Below, in pieces: positions 11,419 through 44,453 of a DNA stretch of 63,993 nucleotides. The notes beneath the pieces are model-generated. The model saw only the letters and a program-made list of their open reading frames with translations. It was not told the DNA's origin and ran no database searches. Location: the IMG/VR virus record IMGVR_UViG_3300027770_000036; one strand, 5' to 3'. The position numbers were made by a program, and so were the translations under genes. The stretch is from an uncultured virus (IMG/VR IMGVR_UViG_3300027770_000036) (taxonomy: Duplodnaviria; Heunggongvirae; Uroviricota; Caudoviricetes). Each line of letters starts with the position of its first letter. Positions within the stretch are counted from its first letter, which is position 1.

Positions 11419-11460
11419 AGGATTAGGTGCCATCTACTAGATGACTGAGACCTATCCTTT
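11419..11460 (-). promoter_or_regulatory. Conserved 5'-leader RNA hairpin (copies near 11751, 37888, 38367, 39829, 41668, 42199, 42570, 44381)
   Basis: Minus strand AAGGATAGG-N-AGTCATCT-N3-AGATGGCACCTAATCCT begins just downstream of the -10 box; the inner stem covaries (CATCT/AGATG versus CACCT/AGGTG). Confidence 0.8.
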
Positions 11461-11557
11461 CATATCATTATGACACGATTATGGGTCGAATTAAGGAATG
11501 GGTAATAGCTAAAAAAAAATCACCTCCAAACCCCTAAGGGCTGGAGGTGATCTCGTT

Positions 11558-11731
11558 TTACTTAGTAGAGTAATGACTCCTAAGGAAATCTACCCATCTT
11601 TCCTCCATCTCAACCGCCTTGGCGGCCTTGGCTGCCAAGACGGTTGACCTCAATACGAGTCCGCCTATCACAGCCCCTAGGGCTATGAAGGTGCCTGCAA
11701 CAATAATTAGATGGCCGTACTTCTTCAACAT
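11558..11731 (-). CDS. 57-aa single-TM protein (cassette gene)
   Basis: GAAAGGA SD; MLKKYGHLIIVAGTFIALGAVIGGLVL...HYSTK. Confidence 0.75.
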   Translation of the reverse strand: MLKKYGHLIIVAGTFIALGAVIGGLVLRSTVLAAKAAKAVEMEERWVDFLRSHYSTK

Positions 11732-11886
11732 GTTATTATCCTTTCGATACAGGATTAGGTGCCATCTACTAGATGACTGATAACCTATCCTTTCATATCA
11801 TTATGACTCAAATACCCCTCCAATTAAGTGGTGCGTAATAGCTAAAAAAAAGCAGCCATATGGATAACCATACGACTGCTCTTTGT

Positions 11887-12276
11887 TTAGTTATTCTTTA
11901 AGGCCTCCCTAACGGCCTTCAGCAATACAGTTCTCCTAAAGGAGGAGAACGTCTTAAACTCAAGAGTCGAGTTTAAGATTTTAGCGGCAACCGCCATTGT
12001 TGCCGACCAGGCTCCGAGCTGGTCCTTGGTTAGGATAGCCACCAGTACCGGGCCTTTGCCCTGATACTGAGAAAGGGCCGCCTTGACCCAGTTCTTACCA
12101 GCTACCTCACAGAACAGAAAGTCCCTAGTTGAAGAGTACTTCTTCCAGTTCTTCCTCTGGGCCACAAGGCCCAGCTTCTCCATTCCTTGGGGAGAGAGAC
12201 TAGCAATCTCCTCCTCAAAGGCCCCGTGGGCGAAGTCCCACTCTGAGGACGGGGCTAAACTTAACTTGGCTGCCAT
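11887..12276 (-). CDS. Hypothetical protein (cassette gene)
   Basis: AGGAGG SD, 129 aa, lies between promoter and terminator. Confidence 0.75.
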   Translation of the reverse strand: MAAKLSLAPSSEWDFAHGAFEEEIASLSPQGMEKLGLVAQRKNWKKYSSTRDFLFCEVAGKNWVKAALSQYQGKGPVLVAILTKDQLGAWSATMAVAAKILNSTLEFKTFSSFRRTVLLKAVREALKNN

Positions 12277-12390
12277 ATGGCCTCCTATTCTTCCAGCGTG
12301 TGGATGCTACGATTAGTCGTATGCTACGATTAGTCGTAGTAGTTAAATGCCACGTGGATTCATAGGATTATGACGCGAAATGTGCTCTGA

Positions 12391-13161
12391 TTAAGCCTTC
12401 TTATGTGCGAGGTAATTATCGCATATAAAGGTGAATGAGTACTTCTTCATCTTGTCTCTTATAGTGGTTACGTTGAGGCCCATCTTTTTAGCCCACTTGG
12501 GAAGCGTAAGCTCCTCTCCGTTATAGCTGTATAGCTTAGGCTTCTTTACCTCAACTGCCTCAGGCGCAGCTGCTATCTCATCTCCGGTCATTCCTAGCAC
12601 ATATAAGTTGCAGGCCTTATCAAAGTTTAGTTTCATTTTCTTACATAACGTCATTAGTCGCATTATCTCGCCCTTGTATATCACCTCTCCAGATAGCTTT
12701 GGAGGATCTTCAGATATGGCGTCGGCAAATGTCATGCCCCTTCTAAGTCTGGTAGTTATAGTTGAGTAATTAAGTCCTAGATCCTTACACCACACAGATA
12801 AAGGAAACTTCTTACCGTCGTGCTCTATTATCTTATTCGTAGTCTTATTGATAGCCTGCATATGGGAGATGAGCCATTTCATATTACCAGTAACGTAACC
12901 CTTATCATTGTCTATGCGCTCTATAGTGTACTTCTCTTTTGGGGACGGGCACTCTCCTACTTCGTTAAGGAAGTTAAGAAAACTGTACCTATAGAAGTCC
13001 TCTATTACAAAACCCCTACCTCCATAATTAGAGTATCTGGCGTGCATTGGATTATGGCACTTACCTATAGTTCGCTGCCAGGTCTTGTACTCTTTATAGT
13101 ACCTTCCGTACACCATTGATGAGCCTGCTACGTCTTCTGGTTTAAAGGCAAAGTTAGGCAC
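12391..13161 (-). CDS. HNH-like homing endonuclease with repeated C-terminal DNA-binding modules
   Basis: YSNYGGRG...TIERIDNDKGY..GN.KW, followed by repeats like GKKFPLSVWCKDLGLNYSTI and GEELTLPKWAKKMGLNVTTI. Confidence 0.7.
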   Translation of the reverse strand: MPNFAFKPEDVAGSSMVYGRYYKEYKTWQRTIGKCHNPMHARYSNYGGRGFVIEDFYRYSFLNFLNEVGECPSPKEKYTIERIDNDKGYVTGNMKWLISHMQAINKTTNKIIEHDGKKFPLSVWCKDLGLNYSTITTRLRRGMTFADAISEDPPKLSGEVIYKGEIMRLMTLCKKMKLNFDKACNLYVLGMTGDEIAAAPEAVEVKKPKLYSYNGEELTLPKWAKKMGLNVTTIRDKMKKYSFTFICDNYLAHKKA

Positions 13162-13181
13162 TGGTATCTCCGAGTAAGAGT

Positions 13182-13619: not shown

Positions 13620-13634
13620 ACTATCTCCCTTATA

Positions 13635-14300: not shown

Positions 14301-14353
14301 TATTACTCCGACCGGGTATTAACCCGGCTATGGGTTACACCGAACTACCAACA

Positions 14354-14369
14354 GTGGAGACGTCTCCAC
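14354..14369. repeat. 16-bp palindrome GTGGAGACGTCTCCAC (dispersed family, about 12 copies)
   Basis: Perfect copies at 14354, 37967 and 60915; variants at 7850, 23284, 26824, 34919, 36207, 39418, 40523, 45460 and 52890. Confidence 0.9.
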
Positions 14370-14381
14370 TATTTTTTATAC

Positions 14382-15437: not shown

Positions 15438-15439
15438 GC

Positions 15440-16021: not shown

Positions 16022-16161
16022 TATAGGCCTCCTGCAAGACGTAGGTGTAAGGATGTAACGACCTACCACTATGGTACCCTATTAATGTAGGCCTACAAAC
16101 CATTTAGGTAAGATTTGATTTAAGTCGTTACGATATAAGGCTTTACACTTCTATAATAAGG

Positions 16162-23302: not shown

Positions 23303-24820
23303 TTACCCTCTAGGAACATTAGGTATGGTACCTGTCATAGGTCTGGTCTGTGGTTTCCCTACCGTATTGGTACCTGGTGCAGTCTGTGGTTCTCCTACCG
23401 TGCGGTTTCCTGGTGTGGTCTCTGGTTCTCCTGCCATACTGGTGCCTGATGTAGGGTGCGATCTTGGGCGGTGGTTATCTGCGTAGGCGGATAAGGGAGT
23501 CTGCGGGCCTCCTGCTCTAGTAAGGCTTTTAACCTCACTGAGGCCTTTATATTTAGCCGCCTCCATAGCGGCAGTTAATCCCCTTGATGCTAGTGTGGTT
23601 CCCGTGGCTCCCTCGGCCCCAGCAACAAGAGATTTGCCCAGCCCAGTAGGATCTGTATAAGGTAAAGAAGCCTTACCTATACCTGTTAAGTATTTTGCCG
23701 TACCCTCTCCTTTTGGGATAAAGGATTTAGCTAAGGCAGTGGCATCCGAAAAACCACCACCTAAACCGCCGCCGCCAGCGACGCTGGTAAGGCCTCCAGC
23801 GGCATAGCCTGTCCCCATGCTGGCTAGTCCCACCATTGCAGCGTTGTCTGGGGCAATGCTATGGTTGTGTTGGGGTGCTAGGTTAGGGGGCGCGTCTTGG
23901 CCGTATTTAGGTCCACCTCTTCGATACTCCCAGTCAGGAGTCTGGGCTCTATAATCTTGCTTCTCCTTCTCTTGCGCCTCCGAGATCCGGTGTGCCTCGT
24001 ACTCTCGATTCTCTTGGTGCTGCTCAGGCGTCCAGCTGGCTCGCCTCATCGCCTCAATGGAACCTTGCGGTATAGGCGGCGTGGGCTGTTTCATAAAAGG
24101 AGCCGGAGTACCTTTAGGGGGACCCCCAATCAGAGCTCCTAGTGGTCCTCTAGCCGGTGCCGTAGACATCGGGTCACGCGCCCCCATACTAGGCCCGCTA
24201 TTTCCTGGAAAGGTGCCTGCAGCAGGGGGATTATTTATTGGGGCGAACCTAGCAAATCCCTGTGTGGGGTCGAGGGAGACAGGATTTGGTCCATTCAAAT
24301 CTACATGGCGGTCGCCTGCAGAAAAATTAGACGGGGTTGCATATGCAGCCCTCTTGCCCATCATAGCTCCAAAGGCTGCTGCCTTTTTAAGTGACCCAGA
24401 TCTAGATCTCATACCCATCAATGATCTGTTAACAGCTTCCATAGGATTCCCCTCGGGCCCCCAATCATCAATAGGCCCTGGGGACTTAAGCCTTAAGGTC
24501 TCAAGAATGCCTGATCTAGGCTTGAGGGGATATTGTAGGCTGTAGTAATTTGGTAGATTTTCTACGTCATCAAGATCTTTGTCATTGGGCGCAGCAGATA
24601 TACGCTTAATAGCTTCCTCAGGAGTGAACATATCTCGCATGTCCCTGTCTGCGTGAAAAAGCAACTGGGCTTTGCGCCTAGCCGCTTCAGCGGTGAATAA
24701 GCGAGTTAGGTCTATCATCTTTTGCTTATTCAAGCCCCAGGCTGGACCACCATCTGCCCATCTATCATATTCGCCATACTCATCATCGCCGCCGTAAGCT
24801 GCTTTTTCAAATCTGTTCAT
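23303..24820 (-). CDS. MNRxEKAA-family probable virion cargo protein
   Basis: MNRFEKAA start; internal LKKAAAFGAMMGKRAA; low-complexity C-terminus. Confidence 0.65.
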   Translation of the reverse strand: MNRFEKAAYGGDDEYGEYDRWADGGPAWGLNKQKMIDLTRLFTAEAARRKAQLLFHADRDMRDMFTPEEAIKRISAAPNDKDLDDVENLPNYYSLQYPLKPRSGILETLRLKSPGPIDDWGPEGNPMEAVNRSLMGMRSRSGSLKKAAAFGAMMGKRAAYATPSNFSAGDRHVDLNGPNPVSLDPTQGFARFAPINNPPAAGTFPGNSGPSMGARDPMSTAPARGPLGALIGGPPKGTPAPFMKQPTPPIPQGSIEAMRRASWTPEQHQENREYEAHRISEAQEKEKQDYRAQTPDWEYRRGGPKYGQDAPPNLAPQHNHSIAPDNAAMVGLASMGTGYAAGGLTSVAGGGGLGGGFSDATALAKSFIPKGEGTAKYLTGIGKASLPYTDPTGLGKSLVAGAEGATGTTLASRGLTAAMEAAKYKGLSEVKSLTRAGGPQTPLSAYADNHRPRSHPTSGTSMAGEPETTPGNRTVGEPQTAPGTNTVGKPQTRPMTGTIPNVPRG

Positions 24821-24904
24821 TTTAATGTCCTGTAAAAGTAATGATGCTGGAATTTACTGCATATCATGGCAGAAGTCAAACCTATACGAAGCTAAGAGTT
24901 AAAG

Positions 24905-27930: not shown

Positions 27931-29699
27931 TAAAATAACCTTCTAGGTGTCTTACTCTCTATAACAGGAGAGCTTGCAGGCGGAACAGGCTGCATGCCTC
28001 TAGGCACCGGTGGTGTGTTAATCTGACCCCCTGCGCCAGGTAAAGGTCTTTGGCTCTGCTGCCCTTCTTGTCGAGTAAACGTTGCACCCGGTTGTATGAC
28101 TCCGTCTTTCATGGTACCTCTAGAAGTACCATACGCTCCGTTACCTCCGGCGGCATCTCTAACCATCTGACCTTTACGCTGTAGCTCCATACGAGCGTTA
28201 TGAATCTGAATATCTCTAGCGCTTGGCTGAGGAGCTACAGGAGCTTCACCAGCAGCCATCTTCCCCATCATAGCCCCGAAGGCAGCTGCCTTAGCGATAG
28301 TCCCCTTTTTGCTAGGCTTCGCTGACGGAGCTAAGTCTAGATAAGGATAGTACTCATCAAACAGCTTCTGCCTGTTAGTCGGGTCATTATACTCAGGGAA
28401 TGTTGACTGCTCAAATAGCGAATGCACAACATCAGGTTCTGTATTCATTTTCCATGGTAGATTTTTATCCACCATATCTGTGTAGTTAGGTGGATAGTCT
28501 TTTATATCTTCAGGTTTTCTATATGGATTTTTTACTACACCGTAGTTCCTGTCCAAGTAATGGTTCAGGATATTATTAACGCCTTCTCTTGTATGGTCAT
28601 CGCGCAAGGCCATCTCTTTTTTCCAATCGTTTGCGTCCCACTCCTCTTCGTTATCACTGCGTAGGTACTCAGCGTCTCTAGCCTTATCGATCATGCCTTG
28701 GGTGCGAAATGGAAACCAGCTTGGCCCAAAGGCTGCTGCCTTTTTAAGGCCGGGCTTGGCACGGTAGACGGCGTTTTCAAAGATATCTTCGCCGCCAATA
28801 GGACTGTCTCCCTCTTGTTTGTACCGATCTGGATACCATCGGGGCAGCATATAAGAGGCAAGCATAGCCCTACCTTCTGGAGTTGCCAATGCTTGATTCG
28901 CTGGGGAGTCTCGATCTTCTCCGTACTCCTCGTTAAGCTTAATGGCTGAAAACATATGATCGTAGTCTTTTCTCGGGGAGGAGAACAGCCTAGTTAGAAG
29001 TCTAGGCGACATTGTTCTCTCAGCGTCTAGTCTCATAGAGGTGGCGCCGTCGTCAGGTCCAAACAGAGACTTAATACCAACAGGCTTATCTAGTTTCTTC
29101 CAGAACAGACCTGCGCTCTTACCCATCTTTATATCTTCTATTTTAATGCCTCCGCCCTTTAACTTCGGGTTTAAAATTTCAGGATGAGTTATCTGCTTCC
29201 AATCTTCGGGAAAAGGCATTCCATGGCTCTTCATGTGTCCTTGAAGTCCCTTATAGTAAGGTGTTCTAGTGTCTTCAAATACGTCTTCATTACCTAGTGG
29301 CGCGTCTGTACCATACGAATAACGGTCTGCTAACATTAAGGGCAGAAAATCAGACGCCCAGATTGCTCTACCGATAGGTGACTCCAGGCCGACACCTCCT
29401 TTGCCTGGGTCAGGATCTCTATCAACTACTGACTGCATTCCTGCTAGCATATTTTTATAGTCTTTACTTGGAGACGAGAACAGCCTAGTTAAAAGCCTAG
29501 GCTCCATTGTCCTGTATGCTCCTAATCTGGCGTGAACAGTTGGCCTATCAAAGTCTACAGGATCATGTGAGTCTGCTGGGTCGTCCTCATTACCCCATAT
29601 AGCCTTAATACCAACAGGCTTATCTAGTTTCTTCCAGAATAAGCCTGCAAGCTTACCCATAGCCGAATCAAAAGATGCTGCTTGTTCAAATCTGTTCAT
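27930..29699 (-). CDS. MNRxE-family protein with an internally duplicated domain
   Basis: AAGGAG SD before ATG 29699 (MNRFEQAASF); GLFWKKLDKPVGIK...PRLLTRLFSSP occurs twice; repeated KAAAFG linkers. Confidence 0.7.
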   Translation of the reverse strand: MNRFEQAASFDSAMGKLAGLFWKKLDKPVGIKAIWGNEDDPADSHDPVDFDRPTVHARLGAYRTMEPRLLTRLFSSPSKDYKNMLAGMQSVVDRDPDPGKGGVGLESPIGRAIWASDFLPLMLADRYSYGTDAPLGNEDVFEDTRTPYYKGLQGHMKSHGMPFPEDWKQITHPEILNPKLKGGGIKIEDIKMGKSAGLFWKKLDKPVGIKSLFGPDDGATSMRLDAERTMSPRLLTRLFSSPRKDYDHMFSAIKLNEEYGEDRDSPANQALATPEGRAMLASYMLPRWYPDRYKQEGDSPIGGEDIFENAVYRAKPGLKKAAAFGPSWFPFRTQGMIDKARDAEYLRSDNEEEWDANDWKKEMALRDDHTREGVNNILNHYLDRNYGVVKNPYRKPEDIKDYPPNYTDMVDKNLPWKMNTEPDVVHSLFEQSTFPEYNDPTNRQKLFDEYYPYLDLAPSAKPSKKGTIAKAAAFGAMMGKMAAGEAPVAPQPSARDIQIHNARMELQRKGQMVRDAAGGNGAYGTSRGTMKDGVIQPGATFTRQEGQQSQRPLPGAGGQINTPPVPRGMQPVPPASSPVIESKTPRRLF

Positions 29700-29721
29700 A
29701 TTAAGCTCCTTATGCTGCATC

Positions 29722-31263
29722 TTATCTGAACTTCTTACCTGCGAGGTATGGAAGTACTTGGGCCGCATTACTGTTCTGCTGATTACTAATCGCTATGCGC
29801 TGAGCAGGTACTCCATTAGGATCCTTAGGAGGATTAGCCCTATTCATGTTAGCCATCTCGTTATAGTGCTTTTCGTTTTGGATAGAATCTACCTTGTCAG
29901 AGACAGGTTTCGGTCTCCATGAGTCTGCAGGAGTAGTGTCAATACGGGGGCTCTTCATGCTCCCGTCCCTGTTGTAGCCAGCCTTGGGGTTATTATCACG
30001 GGAAATACCTGTGGAGCCATGCTGGGTAAACCCTATTGGCTCCCTAAGGCCAAATAGCTGACTATTTGCCTCTCCGTAACTATTGCGCATTCGTGCGTCT
30101 TCGGAAGGGCTGTTAGCCTCATGATTAATCCCAGGGACGCCATATAGCTGGCTACCTCCTTGGGCTCCAGGGTCTGCAGCCATCTTGCCCATCATAGCTC
30201 TGAAGGATGCTGACTTGGGTGAAAAGCTTCCAATCATGCCTCCGCCTAGGACTCCTAGTAAACCACCAGCTAAACCGTGTAATACAGACCCTCCTAGTAC
30301 TCCTCTACGCTTCATCATTACATTACCTTTATCGTCAACGTAATAATGCTTTTCATTGCCTTTATCATCTACATAGCTTCTTCTATGCTCCTCTGGTCCA
30401 GTTGTCTCAAGAGCGTCTAGGCCACTAGATTCATAGTTTAAATGACCAGGACGAATAGCGCCGTAAAGAGCTCCGCCCAGGGCTCCTAGACCGCCCCCTA
30501 CAAGCGCCCCTCTGCCGGCTCCCTCTAGATTATTAATATTGCCAGCCATTATCATAACTCTTGCACTCTTTCCCATACTATTACCCATCATGGCTTCACT
30601 AGAAGTCCTTAGTAGATTTAATTTTTTTTTATGTGGGTCTTGTGCACTAGTAGGAAGCCAGTTAATAATCTTGTCGTAATCCTCTAAATCTTTTTCTTGG
30701 ATATCATATTTAGGGTCGTTGCTGGGAGTTCTTAAGGCCTCCTCTCTGTTTAATTGTTTTGCGTGGTCCATGATGGCGTCTTCAAAGTCCTTCATGTGTT
30801 CTTCACCCCACGTCAAAGAGAAACGTGCGTTACTGCCTGGCTCATAGCGTTCCTTGTCTGAATACAAATAGGATCCCTTCCCGAGATCTACTACTCCACC
30901 AGCCATCTTACCCATCATTGCTCCGAACGCTGCTGCTTTATCTAAATTGTTCATAGCCTGCTCCTTATTAGTGCTTCCTACTACGGCTGGAATAGGTAAG
31001 ACGCTAGCCATAGACGGATATCCCGCTGTCTCTCTAAACCTTTTGAGTCTAGTCTCTAGTAGCTCCTTTTGTTGCTGGCTCTTTAACCAGGCGCTAGCTA
31101 TTAAAGACAGATCTGTCATTTCTTTATCTATATTCTGCTGAGACTTTATAGCCTCCTGGGCGTCTGCTAAGTGCTTTGGTAGCGCTGCTAAAAGGTGGCC
31201 TCTCTCGCTCCACTTTGGAGCCAAGGCCGTCAGGTCATTAGAAGTCTTTTCAAACCTGTTCAT
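29722..31263 (-). CDS. MNRxEK-family protein with glycine zippers
   Basis: MNRFEKTS start; internal MNNLDKAAAFGAMMGKMA and KSASFRAMMGKMAA; GGGLGALGGALYG helices. Confidence 0.7.
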   Translation of the reverse strand: MNRFEKTSNDLTALAPKWSERGHLLAALPKHLADAQEAIKSQQNIDKEMTDLSLIASAWLKSQQQKELLETRLKRFRETAGYPSMASVLPIPAVVGSTNKEQAMNNLDKAAAFGAMMGKMAGGVVDLGKGSYLYSDKERYEPGSNARFSLTWGEEHMKDFEDAIMDHAKQLNREEALRTPSNDPKYDIQEKDLEDYDKIINWLPTSAQDPHKKKLNLLRTSSEAMMGNSMGKSARVMIMAGNINNLEGAGRGALVGGGLGALGGALYGAIRPGHLNYESSGLDALETTGPEEHRRSYVDDKGNEKHYYVDDKGNVMMKRRGVLGGSVLHGLAGGLLGVLGGGMIGSFSPKSASFRAMMGKMAADPGAQGGSQLYGVPGINHEANSPSEDARMRNSYGEANSQLFGLREPIGFTQHGSTGISRDNNPKAGYNRDGSMKSPRIDTTPADSWRPKPVSDKVDSIQNEKHYNEMANMNRANPPKDPNGVPAQRIAISNQQNSNAAQVLPYLAGKKFR

Positions 31264-31273
31264 GGTTTGTTCC

Positions 31274-31696
31274 TTACGCCGCGTCTTGGTTAGAAACTAT
31301 ACTTAAGCCGCCGTTGTCTAGTCTACGCCTTAAAGACCTAAGCTCATCCTCTAATTGAATGACCTTTGTTCTTAGCTCATCGTTCTCTTTACGGCAGTTA
31401 CGCCTGTCGTTGTAGAGTTCTTCTATATCCTTCTTCAGGTTCTTCATCTCTTCCCTTAAGAAGGTTTGCATATCTTTAGACGACTCCACGATGAGTCTGT
31501 ATTCACTGAATAAAGAGTCATTCTCATGGTGGTCTAGCCGCTGCTGCTTAAGGATTATCTCTTTGGTCTTTATATCAGAGGCTTTTTCTGACTTAAGCTT
31601 GTTTACATAAATAACAGAAATAGCTCCCGCAAGGGAGCCCACTGCGCCAAATAGAATACTTATCGCAGATAGTATGACGTCTAGCTTTAAGTCCAT
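31274..31696 (-). CDS. N-terminal TM plus coiled-coil protein (possible lysis or membrane accessory)
   Basis: Hydrophobic residues about 7-31, then a heptad-rich helix. Confidence 0.6.
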   Translation of the reverse strand: MDLKLDVILSAISILFGAVGSLAGAISVIYVNKLKSEKASDIKTKEIILKQQRLDHHENDSLFSEYRLIVESSKDMQTFLREEMKNLKKDIEELYNDRRNCRKENDELRTKVIQLEDELRSLRRRLDNGGLSIVSNQDAA

Positions 31697-31712
31697 GGTT
31701 AGTTACCTTAGG

Positions 31713-32573
31713 TTATTGAAGGTCTGAGGTAGGAGTGGTGGGCATAGTAAACGGAGGTCGAGCTAAATGCTTATACTGATAACGGTCACCAAAAGGCAAC
31801 TCAGGGCGAGCCTGTGAAGGAGGTATAGGCCAACCTTTAGATTCTAGGCCAGGATGCAAGTTTATTTTTCCTTTTGGATCTCCCGTACCTAAAAACTGTT
31901 GCACATGGCCTTTAAATCCTACGGGGTCTGGAACTCTATACCCGAGGGGATCAGAAAAATTAATGTTATCCTCCAGTTGCTTTGACCTAGAAGCCTGTGC
32001 TTGCTGCTCATCATACGGGCCTGGCTTTGGAGGTTGCCAAGGCTTAGGGGTTGGGGCGTAGTTTAACGGAGTCCTAAGTGCTCCTGAGTCTGAGGGAGCA
32101 CTATGTCGTTCCCTAGGCGGGCCGTAATCAGCAGGGACAGGAAACTGCTCCATTCCAGGAGTATACAGAATTGAGTTAGAACCAGAGTTAGGTAGCTTAG
32201 GCTTATAAACTTGTTCAGGTGCTTTACGCTGAGCTGGTGCTGGCACAGGAGGCACAGGCCCTTCAGCCATCTTAAATAATAAGCTACGAAGACTAGCAAT
32301 CTTATTAGGCATAGGGTCTGAAGACATTCTTCTAATTACCTCTCCCACTCCTGCTCCGGTAGCCATACCTAAGCCGGAGCCCGCAATGGCTCTCAGTACT
32401 CTGTCCTTTTTAGTGCCTTTACGTAAGTCATAGCCGATTGTTCCTAACCCACCTATAAGGGCACCATATAATCCGCCAATAAGGTGTCTATCATCTAAGC
32501 TATCTGAGGAAGGCCACAACGCAGCCTTACCCATCATAGCCCCAAAGGCCGCTGCTTTCTCAAGCCTGTTCAT
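31713..32573 (-). CDS. MNRLEKAAAFGAMMGKAA-family protein
   Basis: Canonical leader, glycine zipper, Pro-rich tail. Confidence 0.7.
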   Translation of the reverse strand: MNRLEKAAAFGAMMGKAALWPSSDSLDDRHLIGGLYGALIGGLGTIGYDLRKGTKKDRVLRAIAGSGLGMATGAGVGEVIRRMSSDPMPNKIASLRSLLFKMAEGPVPPVPAPAQRKAPEQVYKPKLPNSGSNSILYTPGMEQFPVPADYGPPRERHSAPSDSGALRTPLNYAPTPKPWQPPKPGPYDEQQAQASRSKQLEDNINFSDPLGYRVPDPVGFKGHVQQFLGTGDPKGKINLHPGLESKGWPIPPSQARPELPFGDRYQYKHLARPPFTMPTTPTSDLQ

Positions 32574-32594
32574 TGTTGTACCCTTGGTTAAAGA

Positions 32595-33197
32595 TTAGAA
32601 ATCGTATGAAAGAGTTGGCGCTAGCGTAGGCCTCATATAAGGATTATTCATGCCGCTGTGCCTAGCGTACTCCCTCATTGCATTGTCCTGGTTATACACA
32701 GGGTCTGATAAAAGGTCTCTCTTAGTTATCTCTCCAGGTCCAAGCCTAGCCATCATATCTTTCAAACCCTCGTTAGTGGATTTTCTTTGGAAGTAAGTGG
32801 TAAGAGCCCCTAAGCCTCCTAGAGCAGTACCTCCAGCCAAAGCGCCTGCTAGTGATCCAACTAACGGCTCTTTCATAGAGCGACCAAGATTAAAGCCCAT
32901 TGCACCACCACCAAGAGCGCCAATCGCCCCAAGACCAAGACCGCCCACTATAGCTCCTTTAAGAGGGCTACTTAACATCTCGTGTACTGGAGTTCCATAG
33001 GATTCAAAAATCCTGGGCAACCACCTACTCTCTCCTTTTTCTACTTTTTTAAGCTCATCTGGAGTAAGCCCTTCCCTTCTATTAGCCACGGGAAGATGGG
33101 TCTGAAGGGACAAAGCGTTGTCTATAGCTTTGCTAGAGTTGGCGGACTTATGTATCAAGTACATTAACTTAGATGCTGCTTTCTCACGTCTGTTCAT
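32595..33197 (-). CDS. MNRxEKAA-family glycine-zipper protein
   Basis: MNRREKAAS...HKSA; two GxxxG-rich helices. Confidence 0.7.
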   Translation of the reverse strand: MNRREKAASKLMYLIHKSANSSKAIDNALSLQTHLPVANRREGLTPDELKKVEKGESRWLPRIFESYGTPVHEMLSSPLKGAIVGGLGLGAIGALGGGAMGFNLGRSMKEPLVGSLAGALAGGTALGGLGALTTYFQRKSTNEGLKDMMARLGPGEITKRDLLSDPVYNQDNAMREYARHSGMNNPYMRPTLAPTLSYDF

Positions 33198-33212
33198 TGC
33201 TATCTCCTTTGT

Positions 33213-33338
33213 TTATTTCTGGTAGAAGCTTTTTAAGTCGGACATTATACCGTTAACCTGTTGAGTACTCATAGAGGGCTTGGCTGGAGCGGGATTGTTT
33301 GAGCCAGCTGAGAGTATGATGTCTAGCTTAAAGTCCAT
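33213..33338 (-). CDS. 41-aa chimeric mini-ORF
   Basis: MDFKLDIILSA start matches MDLKLDVILSA of 31274..31696; AGGAG SD upstream. Confidence 0.5.
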   Translation of the reverse strand: MDFKLDIILSAGSNNPAPAKPSMSTQQVNGIMSDLKSFYQK

Positions 33339-33341
33339 GGC

Positions 33342-33842
33342 TTATTCTCCTGGTCTAACTATTTGGGCATTACGTACTGTTCTAGGTCCAGGGTGGGCGG
33401 TAGGAGAGTTATGATAAAAGTTGAGTGGATCTTGACCGGCTGGATCTATCTGAGCATTGCTGAAGGATCTGCCAGGGCCGGCAGGAGGTTGAGATAGCAT
33501 AGGGTTCTTAGGTGCTGTTTTTTGTGCAAAAGAGCTTGGTGAAGGTTTCTGCTGCTGTTTACCGCCAAACGCACTCTGCATGCCACTAATATCTTTATTG
33601 CTGAGTTGAGGTCTTGTCTGGGGGTTAGCTTGGAACGTAGGTTCATACCTATGTACGGCCCTTTCAGCCATTAGCGCTTTTTCATCAACCGGCTCTTTCA
33701 AGCCATTAAAGCCATTAATGATCTCATCAGCATCCTGCCTCTGGGCTGGTGTTAGGGTTCTGCGGCCTGTACCTACACCCTGTTCAGCTGCCGCCTTACC
33801 CATCATGCGTCCGAAGTATGCTGCTTTCTCAAGTCTGTTCAT
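33342..33842 (-). CDS. MNRLEKAAYFGRMMGKAA-family protein
   Basis: Canonical leader plus a disordered body; its SD/start (aggagatagcaatgaacag) is shared with 33197. Confidence 0.7.
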   Translation of the reverse strand: MNRLEKAAYFGRMMGKAAAEQGVGTGRRTLTPAQRQDADEIINGFNGLKEPVDEKALMAERAVHRYEPTFQANPQTRPQLSNKDISGMQSAFGGKQQQKPSPSSFAQKTAPKNPMLSQPPAGPGRSFSNAQIDPAGQDPLNFYHNSPTAHPGPRTVRNAQIVRPGE

Positions 33843-34905: not shown

Positions 34906-34938
34906 ACACCTCGTATAAGTGGAGACGTCTCCAAAAGT

Positions 34939-36136: not shown

Positions 36137-36302
36137 GAGTAGCCTCCTGTGATAGTCCGTCTAGGCTTAACTGTACTACTTATAACAACTTAAATAAAAT
36201 TAACAAGTGGAGACGCCTCCATTATGTTAGTGGGAAGGATTGAGGTTTGTCTTTGTAAGTAGAATTGGCGTAAGGACTTACGTCGATAGTGTGTTTATCT
36301 TT

Positions 36303-37208: not shown

Positions 37209-37538
37209 TTACTTCATATTTAGTTTCATGATCACTAGTCCTGCAGCGACTATAAGTGACCCTAACACTACATACTTATTAACATTTAGTCCAAAGAAAA
37301 CAAGAGGTATTACATAATCTACAAATATAACAGCAAACGCCCAGCATAGGCTAAAGAAAAAGATGCGCTCTTTGTTGTCTAAAACTCTTACACCAGTTAC
37401 CCACATGGAGGATATACACAGACCTATTAGTATGGAGACTACTGGATAATACCAGGAGTTTCTAGTCTCAGAGTTATAACATAGCATTACAGATGTGGAG
37501 TAAAGGGTCATGACAGCAAGAATGATTGCACATTCCAT
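37209..37538 (-). CDS. Small four-TM membrane protein (SMR/DMT-like size)
   Basis: 109 aa with four hydrophobic helices. Confidence 0.6.
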   Translation of the reverse strand: MECAIILAVMTLYSTSVMLCYNSETRNSWYYPVVSILIGLCISSMWVTGVRVLDNKERIFFFSLCWAFAVIFVDYVIPLVFFGLNVNKYVVLGSLIVAAGLVIMKLNMK

Positions 37539-37648
37539 ATCATTGGCACCTCATTAAAGTAGTTACTTAAATGATAACCTAGGATAGGAGTGTCTGATAG
37601 CTAAAAAAGATCATTGGAGTACGGGAGGTTAGTCCCGTACTCTAATGA

Positions 37649-37861
37649 TCAATAGGAGCATCTCCTATTATGCCCTTCTAAGGGGTCGTACTCTTCCCCT
37701 AGGTAATAGTTTAACATCTTCTCGTTAATCTCTATCTCTTCCAACTCGTCCAGCTCGGCGGTCAGCCGGCGGATGTCCTTTTCTACCTTCCAACTGCGCC
37801 GCTGCTTGGTAAGTAGATCGAGACTCTCGAGTATTTGTTCTCTTCTGTCTTCAATTTTAAT
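37649..37861 (-). CDS. 70-aa coiled-coil protein, probable ATT start
   Basis: AAGGAG-TAGTGCC-ATT, then an open frame IKIEDRREQILESLDLL...DIRRLTAELDELEEIE that fills the cassette. Confidence 0.55.
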   Translation of the reverse strand: MKIEDRREQILESLDLLTKQRRSWKVEKDIRRLTAELDELEEIEINEKMLNYYLGEEYDPLEGHNRRCSY

Positions 37862-37938
37862 GGCACTACTCCTTAAAATACCTACCTAGGATTAGGCGCC
37901 ACCTTTTAGGTGACTAATAAACCTATCCTTTACATACT

Positions 37939-37967
37939 ATTATGACGCAATTATGGATTGGATTAAG
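37939..37967 (-). promoter_or_regulatory. Cassette promoter, consensus CTTAAT-N17-CATAAT with GCGT before the -10 box (18 copies)
   Basis: Plus-strand attatgac(g/a/t)c-N-attaa(g) near 11184, 11467, 11800, 12368, 37939, 38416, 38805, 39390, 39879, 40495, 41421, 41720, 42247, 42619, 43245, 43962, 44430 and 55485. Confidence 0.85.
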
Positions 37968-38043
37968 TGGAGACGTCTCCACTATGTGATAGCTAAAAAA
38001 AAGAAACACACCATACCCGAAGGCATGATGTGCTTTGCTTGGA

Positions 38044-38337
38044 TTAGGATAACTTATCCTTAATCCAAGCCGACACCACAACCCAGCTAGTGCTGGATAT
38101 GGCGTCGTTATATAGGTCGCAGGATGCTACGTATCCCCACTCTGCATCCCACTCATTTAGTAGGACAGCCTCGAACAAACCTTCTAGGGTGTCTATAGAC
38201 ACCGCTATACCCGGCTTACCCCTACTCGGGACAAGCTCTGCAAGGTTTGAGGTATAGCTCCTAACCTTCCCAACATTTAACTGTCTGACCGCGTCAGCCA
38301 GCTTTGCCGTGGGGAGCAAATGCGACTTGTTGTTAAT
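38044..38337 (-). CDS. Hypothetical protein (cassette gene), probable ATT start
   Basis: AAGGAGG-ATATC-ATT is in frame with the ORF-track frame 38044..38319. Confidence 0.65.
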   Translation of the reverse strand: MNNKSHLLPTAKLADAVRQLNVGKVRSYTSNLAELVPSRGKPGIAVSIDTLEGLFEAVLLNEWDAEWGYVASCDLYNDAISSTSWVVVSAWIKDKLS

Positions 38338-38475
38338 GATATCCTCCTTGTAACAACAACCTCTATAGGATTAGGAGCCACCTTTTAGGTGACTAATACC
38401 TATCCTTTCCATAATATTATGACGCACTTATAGATTGGATTAAGGAATGGGTGATAGCTAAAAAAAACCCAACCG

Positions 38476-38595
38476 CTACTTGTAGTAGCGGCTAGGTGAG
38501 GTATTGTGGCTCAAAGAGCACACAATACCTATTAGTAGCATAAGGACGCATGGCCATGCGTCCAACAAATAAACAGGGGAAACTACAATCTCCAT
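38476..38595 (-). CDS. 39-aa hydrophobic peptide
   Basis: GAGGAG SD; MEIVVSPVYLLDAWPCVLMLLIGIVCSLSHNTSPSRYYK; its end overlaps the terminator. Confidence 0.5.
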   Translation of the reverse strand: MEIVVSPVYLLDAWPCVLMLLIGIVCSLSHNTSPSRYYK

Positions 38596-38855
38596 AACAA
38601 TCTCCTCGTTAAGACTGTTCATTAAAGTAAATTTGAAAAGAGGTAAGAATGCGCCTTAAAGGTGGAAGGTCTATTCCCTTACATAGGGGAATAGAAGCAC
38701 GTATGATTGGCATACCTGTGCGAATTCCCTATCCTGTAGTCCCGCCGAACTACCCTTAGTTTGCTCCATAGCTCTGCGCATCTTACCCCTACCGGTACCA
38801 CTCTATTATGACGCACTTATGGATTGGATTAAGGAATGGGTGATAGCTAAAAAAA

Positions 38856-39385
38856 GACACATGAGACCGGGGTTTAACCCGGTAACCTCATGTATCCCTC
38901 TTTGTGGAAGTTTCATCCACACCCGTACCCGGCCGGTAGCCGCCCGTCTGTTGAGTCAGCGGGAACCTGCAGTTTAACGTCATGCATGGACGCCAGCTTT
39001 AATTGAAGCAGCTTAACGTCCTGCTGATGACGGCCCTTCCCTCCAGGTGCGCAGCAGTATCGCTGATACTGCTTAGAATCTCCCGTGGGTATAGGGAGAA
39101 GCGTGGAAGTCTCATCCACACCCCATTTTAGCCACAGTGGGTTACTGCTTGTTGTTCCGTCACCGGGTAGCAGCATCTACTGATGCCGCCCCACAACCAC
39201 AAGTCAACTAGGTGACTTTGTATGCCCCCTGCTAGTGGAGTACATACACCTTGTGGAAGGGCCAGAGTTTTCGTTATCTCTGGAACGCTCCTGGGGCGGT
39301 ATTACCAACCTGATAGAAGAATCAGTTGGGCTTACGAGTACTTTTAACGCCACTGTCTCGAGGGGGCGGATACCTATCGGTATCA
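38856..39385 (-). ncRNA. Candidate modular ncRNA A (pseudoknot and T-loop modules)
   Basis: Own promoter and terminator, no SD-led ORF, structural modules shared with 43372-43956. Confidence 0.65.
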
Positions 39386-39496
39386 CTATATTATGACGCA
39401 CTTATAGGCTGAATTAAGTGAAGGCGTCTCCACTATGTGATAGCTAAAAAAAAAGCGCACCATACCCGAAGGCATGATGTGCTTTTTAAAGGAACA

Positions 39497-39802
39497 CTAG
39501 TACTCTAGGTACAGCGTTCCTCTATCTTTGTACTTCTCCGTTAACCGGAGATTGGCGGCCTTTATGGCCTCCATACCCTGAAAGCGAAGGTTCCAAGTTA
39601 CCGCGGCTGCTTCTTCAAGCAAGCCTACCGCGGGCCTCTTTCCGGAGGCCTTCCTGAAGGACTCTCGAAAGTCCTCCTTGAAAGTTTGCCGGAATTCTTC
39701 AAAGGCCCAGTTCATCCTGGGCGCCTCCAGTGGAGGCCCCTCGTCCGCATATACTGGGGGCTGAATAACCCCAGCAGCTAAGAACATTAACAGAGTAAAA
39801 AT
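39497..39802 (-). CDS. Hypothetical protein with hydrophobic N-terminus, probable ATT start
   Basis: AAGGAG-TAGTGCC-ATT lies 15 nt upstream of, and in frame with, ORF 39497..39787. Confidence 0.65.
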   Translation of the reverse strand: MFTLLMFLAAGVIQPPVYADEGPPLEAPRMNWAFEEFRQTFKEDFRESFRKASGKRPAVGLLEEAAAVTWNLRFQGMEAIKAANLRLTEKYKDRGTLYLEY

Positions 39803-39929
39803 GGCACTACTCCTTAAAATAACTACCTAGGATTAGGCGTCATCTAATAGATGACTGATAAACCTATCCTTCCATACTATTATGACGCACTTATAGATTG
39901 GATTAAGGAATGAGTGATAGCTAAAAAAA

Positions 39930-39956
39930 GAGCAGTTTAACGTCCTGCTCAGGACG
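39930..39956 (-). terminator. H-type pseudoknot directly before the U-tract (also at 40558, 41483, 42669, 43372, 44014)
   Basis: Minus strand CGTCC-TGAGCA-GGACG-TTAAAC-TGCTC-TTTTTTT; stem 1 CGTCC/GGACG, stem 2 GAGCA/TGCTC. Confidence 0.7.
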
Positions 39957-39967
39957 GGGTTTAAACA

Positions 39968-40402
39968 CTATTTTGGGTTAGGTCTAGTTCGAAAATCTGG
40001 GCATGTCATCCAAGCTCGCACGCTTTTTAATGTGTGCGTTCTGTCAAACTTTTCCAATTTTCTTTGACCGACCGCCACAGGGTCTGCGCAATCCATCGCC
40101 GGGCTCCCCGAAAGCATCGGGCCAATTTTTGCCCATCCTCTTGCTAGCCTAAACTCTTCTTCTACATGTCTGGGCCACGCTTCTTCGAGGGCTAGACATA
40201 ACTTTTCAGCTGCTGCATCCCCAGACTTTTCCCGGAGGTATTCAACGCAGCAGAAGAATGAATTATACCCGTGTGCCGTGGCATACCGCCACGACTCCCC
40301 TAAATGGGCAACTAGGACATTTCCCAGAGTCTCCCTACCCCTATGATCATAGGGGGACATAGTGTATTCATTAACCGAATTAGAAACATTTTCAATACTC
40401 AT
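39968..40402 (-). CDS. Hypothetical protein (cassette gene)
   Basis: AAGGAG SD, 144 aa. Confidence 0.75.
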   Translation of the reverse strand: MSIENVSNSVNEYTMSPYDHRGRETLGNVLVAHLGESWRYATAHGYNSFFCCVEYLREKSGDAAAEKLCLALEEAWPRHVEEEFRLARGWAKIGPMLSGSPAMDCADPVAVGQRKLEKFDRTHTLKSVRAWMTCPDFRTRPNPK

Positions 40403-40588
40403 AACACTATCTCCTTAAAAGGTAAACCAAAACAACCCACGAAAAAGCTCGCAGGATTGTTCCTGTAGTAGTTATAGCTACAGGTGATCACTGTATTATG
40501 ACGCATATGTGGGGTGGATTAAGTGGAGACGTTTCCACTATGTGATAGCTAAAAAAAGAGCAGTTTAACGTCCTGCTCAGGACGGGGT

Positions 40589-41344
40589 TTATTTCTTCTT
40601 TGTAGGAGTCGTTGGCTCCGGCTCCGGCTCGGGTTCTGGTTTTAAGTTACCGAACTTACCCTTCAGCAGTTCAATCAAATGACCCCTTTCAGAGTCCAGT
40701 GACCCAGGGAAAGAACGGCCACCATCCAAGTTCCTAGGACTGCACAGTGCTGCCATCGTCGTATACAACGACTCTAACCCGTAGAGCTTCAGGTTCTTGG
40801 CTGCTATTAATAGCCTGCGGGTAGAGAGCTGGAATTGGAACCTAAGGTCATTACTATTTATCCTCCTCCTCACATTCGTAGCTATATCGACTAGCTTACG
40901 AGCGTAGGCTGGGCTGACGTCGGTTTTAACGACTATCAGAGCTGCCTCCTGCTCCTCTGATAGATAATAAAGCTCGATAACATGGTGAAAGATATCTTTC
41001 ACCCTTACGGGAAGGACCACAAATCCGTCGCTGCTTGTATCAACAACGAATACCACCACGGCCTTCTTTTTTCTAAAGGACTTGAGGGCTTCAATGACGT
41101 CCTCGTCCAATAGGTCGGCACGAATGGCTACCGCCATCCTATCCTTTACCAGCCCACCCCTTATTAGTTCCACAGAGTTGGAGGTCATGACCCTCTCTAC
41201 GCTCCGGCCAGTCCTTTCGGACCAAGCATCTAACATGGCATTCTTTCCGCATCCTGTAGGGCCTGAGACGAGTATAAGTCTCGTCTCTTCGGTGTTGGTA
41301 ACCTTTAGAAGGCATTCCAACTGAGGAGTCATAATATATTCCAT
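40589..41344 (-). CDS. MoxR/CbbQ-like AAA+ ATPase, partly degenerate
   Basis: GPTGCGKN Walker A, YLSEEQEAALI, LSTRRLL sensor-2 region; Walker B is unclear. Confidence 0.65.
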   Translation of the reverse strand: MEYIMTPQLECLLKVTNTEETRLILVSGPTGCGKNAMLDAWSERTGRSVERVMTSNSVELIRGGLVKDRMAVAIRADLLDEDVIEALKSFRKKKAVVVFVVDTSSDGFVVLPVRVKDIFHHVIELYYLSEEQEAALIVVKTDVSPAYARKLVDIATNVRRRINSNDLRFQFQLSTRRLLIAAKNLKLYGLESLYTTMAALCSPRNLDGGRSFPGSLDSERGHLIELLKGKFGNLKPEPEPEPEPTTPTKKK

Positions 41345-41802
41345 GTGATTCCTTTAACATAGACGTCAAAGAATAGCTCTCTGACCAGCCCCCGTTTTTA
41401 CAGGTACGGGTAACCAATAGATTATGACGCGTTTATAAGTCCAATTAACGTAATGAGATAGGATGTGTGATAGCTAAAAAAAGAGCAGTTTAACGTCCTG
41501 CTCAGGACGGATGGTTAGACCCCACCGGCGCACCCACACCTGCAACTGCAAGTGTGGCCTTTGTTGGGGAGGAGTCAACAACCTCCCCCTCCGCCTTTTC
41601 TTCCACCTTCTCTAGATGCCGCCATGGTATTTTCCTTTCGTCAAAAAAGGGGGCATACCTGCCCATGCAGAAATAGGTGCCATCCACTATAGATGACTAA
41701 AGACTATTCCTTACAACTCATTATGACGCGTTTATAAGCCCAATTAACATAACGAGATATGATGTGTGATAGCTAAAAAAAAGCAGGATGATCCTGCTCG
41801 GG

Positions 41803-42180
41803 TTACCCCTCTTGACCCACGACCCCCCACAGGCTGAACGGAGCTATCTCCTTCCAGTCGGTGATGTCGTTTGACCGCATGGGCTTCCACCCATTGGCGC
41901 GGTCCAAGCACATTGTAATGTGCTTGCGGGCGTTCCGACTAGGAACGCCCGTATCGACTTCAACGGCCATTACGCCGTCGAGCCGACCGACACTAACTAC
42001 TTTTAGTTCGTGTCGTTGACCATTGAGATCCTGTGCCATACTGTTACATATGGGAAGAAGGTCAACGGTCATATGGTGGCATATGACCTCGAAGTGTTTG
42101 GGCACTTCGAGGTTTGCGTGCATCCACGCCACCAAGATGGATACACTGTCCTTTTCAAGGACGCAAGCCGTGTAGGCCAT
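41803..42180 (-). CDS. 2H phosphoesterase (cyclic phosphodiesterase fold)
   Basis: Two HxT motifs (HHMTV, KHITM) and KPMRSNDI; AGGAG SD before ATG 42180. Confidence 0.75.
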   Translation of the reverse strand: MAYTACVLEKDSVSILVAWMHANLEVPKHFEVICHHMTVDLLPICNSMAQDLNGQRHELKVVSVGRLDGVMAVEVDTGVPSRNARKHITMCLDRANGWKPMRSNDITDWKEIAPFSLWGVVGQEG

Positions 42181-42338
42181 TTTTAGTCTCCTAAAAATAA
42201 GACGAGGCGCCATCTATTTGATGACTGGTACCTATACTTGCACCTTATTATGACGCACTTGTTGTATGAATTAAGGCAGTGTCTTTGCTACCTAATAGCT
42301 AAAAAAAACACACCATACCCGAAGGCATGGTGCGTGTT

Positions 42339-42551
42339 TTATAAATCAACATAGACAAGGCTAAGCAATCCCTTGTCTATAAGTGATGTTAAGTGGGCAT
42401 TGGTAACCCCCTCAATCGTTTTGGCAGCATCCACAAGGGCTATGTGAGCCTTCTTACGGTTGCTGTGCCCTGCCGTCAGGACAAAGAGGTTTCCGCCTCT
42501 TCGGAGCCTGGCTATCCAGGCGAACCCCAGAGGGGTTGATGGGTTTATCAT
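42339..42551 (-). CDS. 70-aa hypothetical protein (cassette gene)
   Basis: GGAGG SD before ATG 42551; the ORF-track start lies inside the leader hairpin. Confidence 0.7.
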   Translation of the reverse strand: MINPSTPLGFAWIARLRRGGNLFVLTAGHSNRKKAHIALVDAAKTIEGVTNAHLTSLIDKGLLSLVYVDL

Positions 42552-42701
42552 GGTAACCTCCGTTAACTGAGGATTAGGTGCCATCGGCTAGATGACTGAT
42601 AACCTATCCTTTCATACTATTATGACGCGCTTATAGGTCGGGTTAAGGAGGAGTGATAGCTAAAAAAAGAGCAGTTTAAAGTCCTGCTCCAGGACTCTAA
42701 A

Positions 42702-43196
42702 CTACTCTAGGTGTAGAGCTTCGTACAGCTCCCTTCTATCGAGCTCCCTCTGAGTTGTCTTTTCCAAGTCTACCTCGCACCACGTAAATATTGACCCTGC
42801 AACCCAGATGTCAAAACCACCAAAATATTCAACCTTTACGTTGCCCACTTTACGATCATCAGGCAACTTTAGCTTCCAAGTATCTGGAAGCATAAAGCAT
42901 GCGAGCCACTCATCTCCTCCGGCGGGTCCGGTAGAGTCGACCCACATTATACAGGCAGGGGCCACCCCGGGCTCACCCTTCAAGTGCAGCTCCAGCTCAC
43001 CCTGCAGGTGCAGCTCCCCCTGCAGGTGCATCTTATCTCGTAGCTCAGTAGCTACGAAGTCTATAACGTCCCTGGCGTCCGCCTCCCCCTTCAAGGTAGG
43101 AAAGAATATAGCATTGGCCTTTTCAAGGGCCAATTTCAATTCCTTCTCCTTTGCGGAGCAAACAGCTGCTCCATCAACCGCCGTAAACTCAAACAT
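42702..43196 (-). CDS. Hypothetical protein (cassette gene)
   Basis: AAGGAG SD; internal HLQGEL repeat. Confidence 0.75.
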   Translation of the reverse strand: MFEFTAVDGAAVCSAKEKELKLALEKANAIFFPTLKGEADARDVIDFVATELRDKMHLQGELHLQGELELHLKGEPGVAPACIMWVDSTGPAGGDEWLACFMLPDTWKLKLPDDRKVGNVKVEYFGGFDIWVAGSIFTWCEVDLEKTTQRELDRRELYEALHLE

Positions 43197-43371
43197 AGAT
43201 TCTCCTTGGTGTTAAAGAAAGTCTTTTGCAACCGATATCACTATATTATGACACGCTTACGATCTGAATTAAGCTGCGACAAAAACACGTCGCTGGCGAC
43301 GAGAGTGTGACGTAATGTGACCGTCACATTATGTTACTTGACAATGAGCTGGTTACTGATAGCTAAAAAAA

Positions 43372-43956
43372 GAGCAGCTTAACGTCCTGCTCAGGACGGC
43401 ACCTTCCCTCAAGGTGCGAGGAATATCTCCCGTGGGTATAGGGAGATATATGGAAGTTTCATCCATACCCCATTTATGGTAGGCGGGTTACCTTAAAAGA
43501 AGAAGGGGTTTCCACCCTATTCCCCGGCTCTCACCGGGTGTCCCACATATTTTAAGAGTGTGGCGTTCTCTAAGCAGTTTATAGTCCTACTCAGGACGCG
43601 CACCTCACTAAGGTGCCGCTAGTGTTACGTCCGTAGTTACTGGACGTTTGTGGAACTTTCATCCACACCCACTTACCTACGGTTGGTTACCGCCCACTGT
43701 TCTTAGGCCGTGGGGCCTTCAGTCCGTAAAAATGTAGACGCAGGACCTAAACCTCACCACAAGGCATTACACTGTAAAGTGCTGGTCCCGCTTAGGTGTG
43801 TGGCTTAATATCCTACAGGTGTGCGCCACATAACTACTTGCGTAGAATTATCAGCGCGCACACCAGGTTAACCTAGATATTAAGTCGAATTCCTCCAAGC
43901 GGCCGTGTCAGATCGGCAGGGCTGAAGGCCTTCGTCCTTAATATCTAGGCGGTATC
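43372..43956 (-). ncRNA. Candidate modular ncRNA B (~585 nt)
   Basis: No ORF of 60 aa or more; own promoter and terminator; 13-bp stem 43872-43884/43937-43949; two tandem pseudoknot/T-loop modules. Confidence 0.75.
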
Positions 43957-44044
43957 ACTCTATTATGACACGATTATGCTCTGAATTAAGGGGGTGCATA
44001 ATAGCTAAAAAAAGAGCAGTTTAACGTCCTGCTCAGGACGGTGG

Positions 44045-44341
44045 TTAGGGCTTTAACTCGAATTCCTTCAAGTCCCCTAATACCACACACTGCAGCCGGT
44101 ACCAGGTATTCCTGGCATCCTCTGAGTGTGAGAACTTAAGTCCACCTTGGCAGATGGAAAGAAAGTCTTTCCATTTGCTTATAGTGATCTTCTTCCCCAT
44201 GGTGTGGCCACCGTAGGGCGTCCAATACTCCGGCATATGCCGGAGTATTTTCTGCTCTAGCTCCCGGGCGTCGGCAGCCTCCTTGTCCATCAACTGGACA
44301 AGGTCTTTTACAAAAACCAAATTTTGTTCTAAAGTGGTCAT
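44045..44341 (-). CDS. Hypothetical protein (cassette gene)
   Basis: GAAAGGA SD before ATG 44341 (MTTLEQ). Confidence 0.7.
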   Translation of the reverse strand: MTTLEQNLVFVKDLVQLMDKEAADARELEQKILRHMPEYWTPYGGHTMGKKITISKWKDFLSICQGGLKFSHSEDARNTWYRLQCVVLGDLKEFELKP

Positions 44342-44453
44342 GGTATTTTCCTTTCTTAAAAGGGGGCATACCTGCCCTACAGGATTAGGCGTCATCTAAT
44401 AGATGACTGATAACCTATCCTTCCATACTATTATGACGCACTTATGGATTGGA

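Follow-up and report, generated by a model that had tools for sequence, protein, structure and literature searches.

A conserved bulged hairpin in the predicted 5′ leaders of cassette transcripts of an uncultured polymerase-coding lake phage

The closest described counterparts of the element reported here, a bulged hairpin that recurs at the head of nine gene cassettes in a 63,993-nucleotide stretch of DNA (the window) from an uncultured tailed phage (IMG/VR record IMGVR_UViG_3300027770_000036), are the promoter-early stem-loop (PeSL) cassettes of T4-type phages (PMC2839356, PMC4122927). As in the portions of the PeSL papers considered here, modules of terminator, promoter and Shine-Dalgarno sequence (SD) are repeated between small accessory open reading frames (ORFs) and relatives have swapped cargo at such modules: at the first unit of the main array, with its predicted start site (+1) at 44424, the relative L005 carries a different gene behind the leader. 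The stem-loops of PeSLs, in contrast, appear in those portions as terminators that precede the start site and lie ahead of the promoter boxes, inside them or immediately behind them, whereas the hairpin in the window belongs to a transcribed leader behind the predicted +1 and has no U-tract, the terminator of each unit being separate. The promoter also differs, as it is not Sigma70-like or TTGACA-like but consists of a TTAAYY −35 box and a GTCATAAT −10 box at fixed spacing, and the phage is not T4-type and codes for its own multi-subunit RNA polymerase.

Three other known systems invite comparison. The T7 R1.1 site is an RNase III substrate, and such substrates are likewise hairpins with an asymmetric defect in phage early RNA, although the helices of the present element are shorter, its position is at the extreme 5′ end and its sequence is found intact in RNA contigs. 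The 5′-terminal stem-loops that stabilise mRNA against the RppH/RNase E and RNase J pathways, as outlined in the relevant part of PMC3997798, also place a stable helix a few bases from the 5′ end, here a predicted one, and apart from the SD; they are, however, generic structures that form no family, while here a single shape with a one-sided bulge and 2–4 unpaired terminal bases is reused on many phage mRNAs. The put RNA of phage HK022 is similarly a structured RNA directly behind an early phage promoter, but in the part of PMC9378689 drawn on here it comprises two stem-loops, is about 70 nt long, binds the β′ zinc-binding domain and serves long operons. Rfam 15 gave no match at gathering score in the window, and for 37400–44600 at E ≤10 there were seven sub-threshold matches with a best E of 0.52, which agrees with the original prediction that the hairpin belongs to no known RNA family. 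No description of the element was found in a literature search whose scope excluded most subscription papers, and its short motifs are absent from four supplements of Fremin 2023 (PMC10690425), their presence in the remaining supplements staying possible.

All nine hairpins of the original prediction are present, each on the minus strand, with the coordinates formerly given as starts being the low, 3′ ends (Table 1). Each follows a repeated promoter, TTAAYY-N14-GTCATAAT, that has 18 sites in the genome, all inside the window, plus one looser match elsewhere; behind it, four free bases and TG (N4-TG) follow at all 18 window sites and in 101 of 112 distinct matches across the fetched loci, and we infer, with weak support, that the G of this TG is +1. 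The window hairpin is a single two-tier structure of 40–48 nt with a lower stem of 8–10 bp, a pyrimidine-rich bulge in the 5′ arm and an upper stem of 6–9 bp, and the nine copies have folding z-scores of −2.1 to −4.0 (200 dinucleotide shuffles each). An RNA model that includes sequences from relatives finds exactly these nine matches in the 126-kb genome record. Among 30 chosen examples from the window and relatives, the lower stem measures 6–10 bp, the bulge 2–7 nt, the upper stem 6–9 bp and the longest paired run 6–10 bp; the bulge starts at +11 to +15 in all 30, and 83 of the 125 bulge bases are pyrimidines.

Several details of the earlier description can be adjusted accordingly (copies are named by their predicted +1). 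The hairpin was thought to begin at +1, which holds for the 41714 copy only, as the stem starts 2–4 nt behind the +1 G, at +3 to +5, in the other eight. The asymmetry ascribed to an internal loop is real, but the loop is a 5′-arm bulge of 4–6 nt that stands opposite no base in eight copies and opposite two bases in the 41714 copy; a literal pattern written with a 2-nt gap accordingly has no matches at ≤3 mismatches, because the bulge is longer than that gap. The bulged A of the lower stem is found in seven of the nine copies and is absent at 41714 and 42241. The compensatory change is a U-A to C-G replacement in two copies (37933 and 38410), probably a single event, and the nine window copies alone give no significant covariation.

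Table 1. Coordinates of the hairpin copies in the window and of the two arrays that contain them (all minus strand; aa, amino acids)
Feature	Position	Strand	Promoter	Predicted +1 (G)	ORF	U-tract	Further features and RNA contigs
Hairpin	11419–11458	−	11467–11494	11461	11271–11399 (42 aa, GTG)	~11236	no RNA contig cover
Hairpin	11751–11791	−	11800–11827	11794	11558–11731 (57 aa)	~11519	one RNA contig up to 11779
Hairpin, C-G variant	37888–37929	−	37939–37966	37933	37649–37861 (70 aa, predicted AUU start)	~37608	RNA contig ends 37922, 37953
Hairpin, C-G variant	38367–38406	−	38416–38443	38410	38044–38337 (97 aa, predicted AUU start)	~38002	RNA contig ends 38399, 38403, 38429
Hairpin	39829–39870	−	39879–39906	39873	39497–39802 (101 aa, predicted AUU start)	~39454	RNA contig ends 39858 (repeat-limited), 39863
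Variant hairpin without bulged A	41667–41714	−	41720–41747	41714	41575–41625 (16 aa)	~41482	
Degenerate hairpin, weak lower stem	42199–42239	−	42247–42274	42241	41803–42180 (125 aa)	~41782	RNA contig ends 42220–42230
Hairpin, 5-nt loop	42570–42610	−	42619–42646	42613	42339–42551 (70 aa)	~42308	
Hairpin	44381–44421	−	44430–44457	44424	44045–44341 (98 aa)	~44013	second small hairpin 5′ of SD; RNA contig ends 44409–44410 repeat-limited
Main array	37608–44457	−					13 promoter-leader-cargo-terminator units, 7 with hairpin
Second array	10665–12394	−					4 units of the same build, 2 with hairpin

Support for the fold comes from relatives and not from the window copies. Pattern scans for the unit of terminator tail and promoter found it in 15 viral-contig and 37 metagenome-contig stretches, and the promoter matched in 17 of 35 records, several of these being single loose matches; an RNA model built only from the nine window copies gave 33 matches at E < 1e-6 in 58 sources. 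The core family, 20 distinct full-length sequences aligned by sequence alone, has 96.3% of 300 cells paired and four pairs changed on both sides, one pair occurring as U-A, U-G and C-G, although the relatedness of these sequences inflates the shuffle control of the pairing test. Twelve of its variant pair types retain pairing and six break it, two of the six stemming from one misaligned variant. The wider family, 15 representatives selected for this fold with a more distant group left out, has 98.7% of cells paired against 31–52% in slid controls, with eight of ten pairs changed on both sides; in the upper stem two-sided changes occur at all seven pairs with 99% of cells paired, the G-C pair below the bulge is invariant in all 15 sequences, and RNAalifold recovers the structure independently. 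An alignment of 25 sequences, with ten more distant ones added, has eight of nine pairs changed on both sides and 78.4% of cells paired, the lower figure arising because MAFFT misregisters the more distant group.

The placement and shape of the hairpin point in the same direction. The wider model gave 22 matches in 8 of 37 whole records, all 22 directly behind the promoter, most of them being training sequences or near copies of these. In a blind case, a weak match of the window-only model (E 0.26–0.86) turned out to follow a degenerate promoter overlooked by the pattern, and its upper stem is new and fully paired. The shape also recurs, in different letters, in other leaders that follow this promoter: among the 50 sequence clusters of 101 leaders, a 5′-arm bulge is present in ten and a 3′-arm bulge in one. 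The corresponding numbers for the 5′ and 3′ arm are 22 and 26 in 2000 shuffles and 31 and 19 in 2000 random genome windows, by a bulge-side criterion that was fixed after data inspection. Neither RNA model matched Salmonella phage Arash, Vibrio phage D69 or the distant relatives G015–G035, many of which are fragments. Judged from the aligned sequences, the hairpin is conserved as an RNA fold on the transcribed strand and not as a DNA operator, since G-U cells outnumber A-C cells by 26 to 1 (13 of the 26 being one shared pair) and the spacing of the half-sites varies between 5, 7 and 9. The original proposal that the cassette transcripts are headed by a conserved RNA structure is supported.

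The array region is present in lake-water RNA runs, and the RNA evidence consists of the contigs of five runs, which map neither transcript ends nor strand. The contigs cover the units singly and lie mostly within them, repeats break contigs, and the neighbouring genes are thinly covered or bare in runs X1–X4. At least 33 contig ends near promoters were tabulated among the pieces listed, interior fragments being left out; four of the 33 are repeat branch points, including 44410 and 39858, and 44409 is probably another, while among the other 29 ends listed 27 fall at +8 to +41 (median +15) and two run 18–19 nt into the promoter (run X1). Contig ends behave alike in units with and without the hairpin, which fits a common start site combined with the loss of terminal bases that is usual in such RNA libraries. 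The upper stem and the 3′ arm are present in the libraries, contigs extending to +8 at best, and this reach into the hairpin is a weak hint against a start site downstream of it. Contig depth cannot rank the units with the hairpin against those lacking it. No joints of mini-circles, which recombination forms from PeSL cassettes, were seen among the RNA contigs, as far as RNA data bear on this.

Several ordinary roles do not fit the anatomy of the hairpin. An intrinsic terminator and an SD-sequestering hairpin were both rejected, as no U-tract follows the stem (1–3 U in the next 8 nt in eight window copies, 5 at 42241) and the SD lies outside the stem, downstream, at 6–30 nt from the hairpin end in the six window copies with a placed SD and farther away in the three AUU-start copies; the same anatomy does not support the selective translation suggested earlier. 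An SD/anti-SD switch, in which the 3′ arm of the core family could pair with AGGA, was discarded since this complementarity is absent from the other subfamilies. The archaeal bulge-helix-bulge motif consists of two 3-nt bulges flanking a 4-bp helix (3-4-3), and was rejected because the bulges here are of 4–6 and 1 nt and most relatives and two of the nine window copies lack the second. Between the leader hairpin and the SD there is a further small hairpin (GGGC...GCCC, 5–6 bp) at 44340–44376 and 41630–41665 (minus strand) and in many relatives.

The function that we tentatively favour, while holding it at a little under even probability, is that of a 5′ stabiliser spread by PeSL-like cassette shuffling. 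The hairpin would shield the 5′ ends of the cassette mRNAs from 5′-end-dependent decay in the host: it would fold within the first 45 nt and leave 2–4 free bases, and a stem so near the 5′ end would slow pyrophosphate removal and the entry of RNase E or RNase J, while the bulge would divide the 13–19-bp duplex into helices of ≤10 bp that RNase III should cut poorly. The element would have multiplied as PeSLs do, through recombination or gene conversion between the repeated modules of terminator, promoter and leader, and a newly captured ORF would gain promoter, stable leader and SD in one step. According to the portion of PMC3997798 considered here, a structured 5′ end shuts out RppH and RNase E and makes mRNA more stable in Bacillus. 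A stable helix begins by +5 in 36 of the 50 leader clusters as compared with 499 of 1000 shuffles, and the hairpin may for this reason be one of several ways in which these transcripts structure their 5′ ends.

Some observations fit a stabiliser poorly. The B. subtilis RppH requires only two unpaired bases and prefers three or more (PMC3997798, same portion); with the G as +1, seven of the nine copies have 3–4 unpaired bases, and the block of the first decay step would therefore be incomplete. The one-sided bulge is kept more constant than stability calls for, a plain stabiliser requiring none. Nine of the 18 window units of this promoter carry other leaders and no hairpin, several of them being also covered by RNA contigs, and for the same reason the earlier notion of a tag marking phage transcripts is too wide. 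Finally, much of the lower stem is gone from the 42241 copy, and this copy persists in a relative.

A possible though unlikely alternative is that a phage protein, or the phage's own RNA polymerase, binds at the bulged junction, which would tag the transcripts for translation, for promoter escape or for protection from shut-off. The bulge keeps its side and position while the upper stem changes (in the 21 examples from outside the window, the upper 5′ arm has a mean identity of 34%), U8-A9 is nearly as constant as the invariant G-C below the bulge, a U stands first in the bulge or last in the lower stem in 29 of the 30 chosen examples, an A stands last in the bulge or first in the upper stem in 21 of the 30, and the phage codes for its own β and β′ subunits. 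The length of the bulge and its letters vary, however, the loop is free, half of the units do without the hairpin and the binder is putative; moreover, UAG near +7 to +12 is also found in 14 of 40 leader clusters without the fold, against a genome background of 13%, and the conservation may therefore stem in part from the promoter's initial transcribed region. The more specific version, in which the hairpin, a bulged structure that we take to be TAR-like in shape, would be a 5′ self-tag read by a phage protein or the two-chain polymerase and would tell chosen early mRNAs from host RNA, is distinctly unlikely. That RNase III processes the hairpin as it does the sites of the T7 early region, with a single cut at the bulge maturing or tuning the mRNA, is improbable. 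A 13–19-bp hairpin with a central asymmetric defect would suit such a role, and loops or bulges at target sites can limit RNase III to one strand according to the part of PMC3867540 consulted for this point, where the idealised substrate has 22 bp; against that length, no paired run here exceeds 10 bp and the upper stem has 6–9 bp. The RNA contigs, besides, pass the 3′ arm and upper stem to +8 to +16 just as in units without the hairpin, and a cut in the first hairpin would leave no upstream product worth stabilising.

The remaining explanations fare less well. The leader could be an ancestral passenger that was duplicated together with the promoter module, is homogenised by gene conversion and serves mainly as a recombination handle. 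In favour of this, the repeat comprises the entire module, cargo changes behind near-identical leaders and the copies are not independent; copying, however, preserves sequence and not pairing, and the two-sided changes throughout the upper stem, together with the excess of pairing over broken variant types in the core family, make this account decidedly improbable. A put-like nascent RNA that modifies RNA polymerase for terminator read-through would also sit directly behind an early-type promoter, as putL does in the part of PMC9378689 cited above; also in its favour, every unit ends in a U-tract and the two X1 contigs run into the promoter. This is nevertheless very improbable: put has two stem-loops against the single hairpin here, no Rfam match was obtained, the downstream units have their own promoters and, of the two run-through cases, one follows a unit that lacks the hairpin. 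The antitermination suggested originally fits poorly with nine units that each hold a single gene, end in their own U-tract and precede a unit with its own promoter. As for a DNA operator or cruciform, in which the upper-stem inverted repeat would be bound as double-stranded DNA, the upper stem is a near-perfect inverted repeat 12–35 bp behind the start site, but the same 26 to 1 excess of G-T over A-C and the unequal half-site spacing count against it, the half-site sequence is not conserved across relatives and the sense strand folds better in 30 of 31 cases, to which base composition contributes, leaving this only the slimmest chance.

The hairpin units themselves are compact, each being 225–459 nt long with one ORF of 16–125 codons, its own promoter and its own U-tract end. 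By eye, about 17 different cargo N-termini stand behind 23 hairpins, and a PHROGs scan of eight in-frame cargo ORFs (the 11461 cargo left out) named none and gave one weak match of unknown function. Initiation at AUU appears possible at 37861, 38337 and 39802 (minus strand), where a strong SD is followed by ATT and an open frame of 70–101 codons; a homologue of the 37861 ORF in L067 (near 2003) has an ATG start at the same place, and L069 (near 1594) retains ATT for the 39802 ORF. The ORF at 41575–41625 (minus strand), the sole cargo of its unit, has 16 codons, is glycine-rich with a C-terminal Cys and is found with 15 codons in L017 (near 9075).

The window has further features. The units at 43371–43956 and 38855–39384 (minus strand; 585 and 529 nt) have no SD-led ORF of ≥30 codons, are covered by RNA contigs of all four runs with the top contig depths of the stretch (35–925, depth being a poor measure), and probably give rise to abundant non-coding RNAs; L005 shows a two-sided change in the first helix of the 43956 unit. 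A module containing GUGGAUGA occurs four times in the window and also in relatives. Directly 5′ of the U-tract in six units, and once inside a long non-coding unit, is a 26–27-nt element in which a small pseudoknot is possible (minus strand, window ends 44039, 43597, 43397, 42695, 41508, 40583 and 39955), and a conserved AGCTAT box follows most U-tracts (e.g. 44000–44013) in the window and in relatives. A near-palindromic box of the GGAGACGTCTCC type immediately precedes several −35 boxes and also occurs in two further intergenic gaps (~40522–40540, 39417–39435, 37966–37984, 36205–36220 and 34915–34932), and is possibly a DNA operator or a second promoter element. Apart from the arrays, several proteins of no Pfam family coded in 23303–33842 (minus strand) share an N-terminal MNR(F/L)EKAA-like peptide.

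The virus record, of which the window forms the second half, has 125,993 bases, is about 61% complete and codes for baseplate J, ribonucleotide reductase, PhoH and RNA polymerase β and β′ domains. By its polymerase, the closest annotated phage is Salmonella phage Arash (gp206, 34.7% identity over 598 amino acids). The virions of Arash hold β, β′ and a sigma factor as stated in the consulted part of PMC10585845, and tailed phages coding their own polymerase are treated in PMC7481178, likewise drawn on in part. A Sigma70_r2 search matched none of five records, and a tRNA scan found none. The promoter array was not seen in Arash or Vibrio phage D69, which have one and two one-mismatch matches (control 0 and 4), and blastn of the array against 50,697 annotated phages gave one 45-nt match at chance level. 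As to the host, a search of genome contigs yielded a single Clostridia match that has neither N4-TG nor the hairpin and was judged to be due to chance.

The element adds a covarying RNA motif outside Rfam in a clade of polymerase-coding lake phages with hitherto unstudied transcription, and broadens the PeSL concept to a mobile module that brings a structured leader in addition to promoter, terminator and SD. Its natural variants, which lack the bulged A, have a decayed lower stem or carry new upper stems, make up a ready mutant series. If the hairpin is a plain stabiliser, its interest would be modest and it could serve in expression vectors, whereas a recognised tag would represent a new layer of phage control and a self-tag, riding in a mobile cassette, would enrol any captured gene at once.

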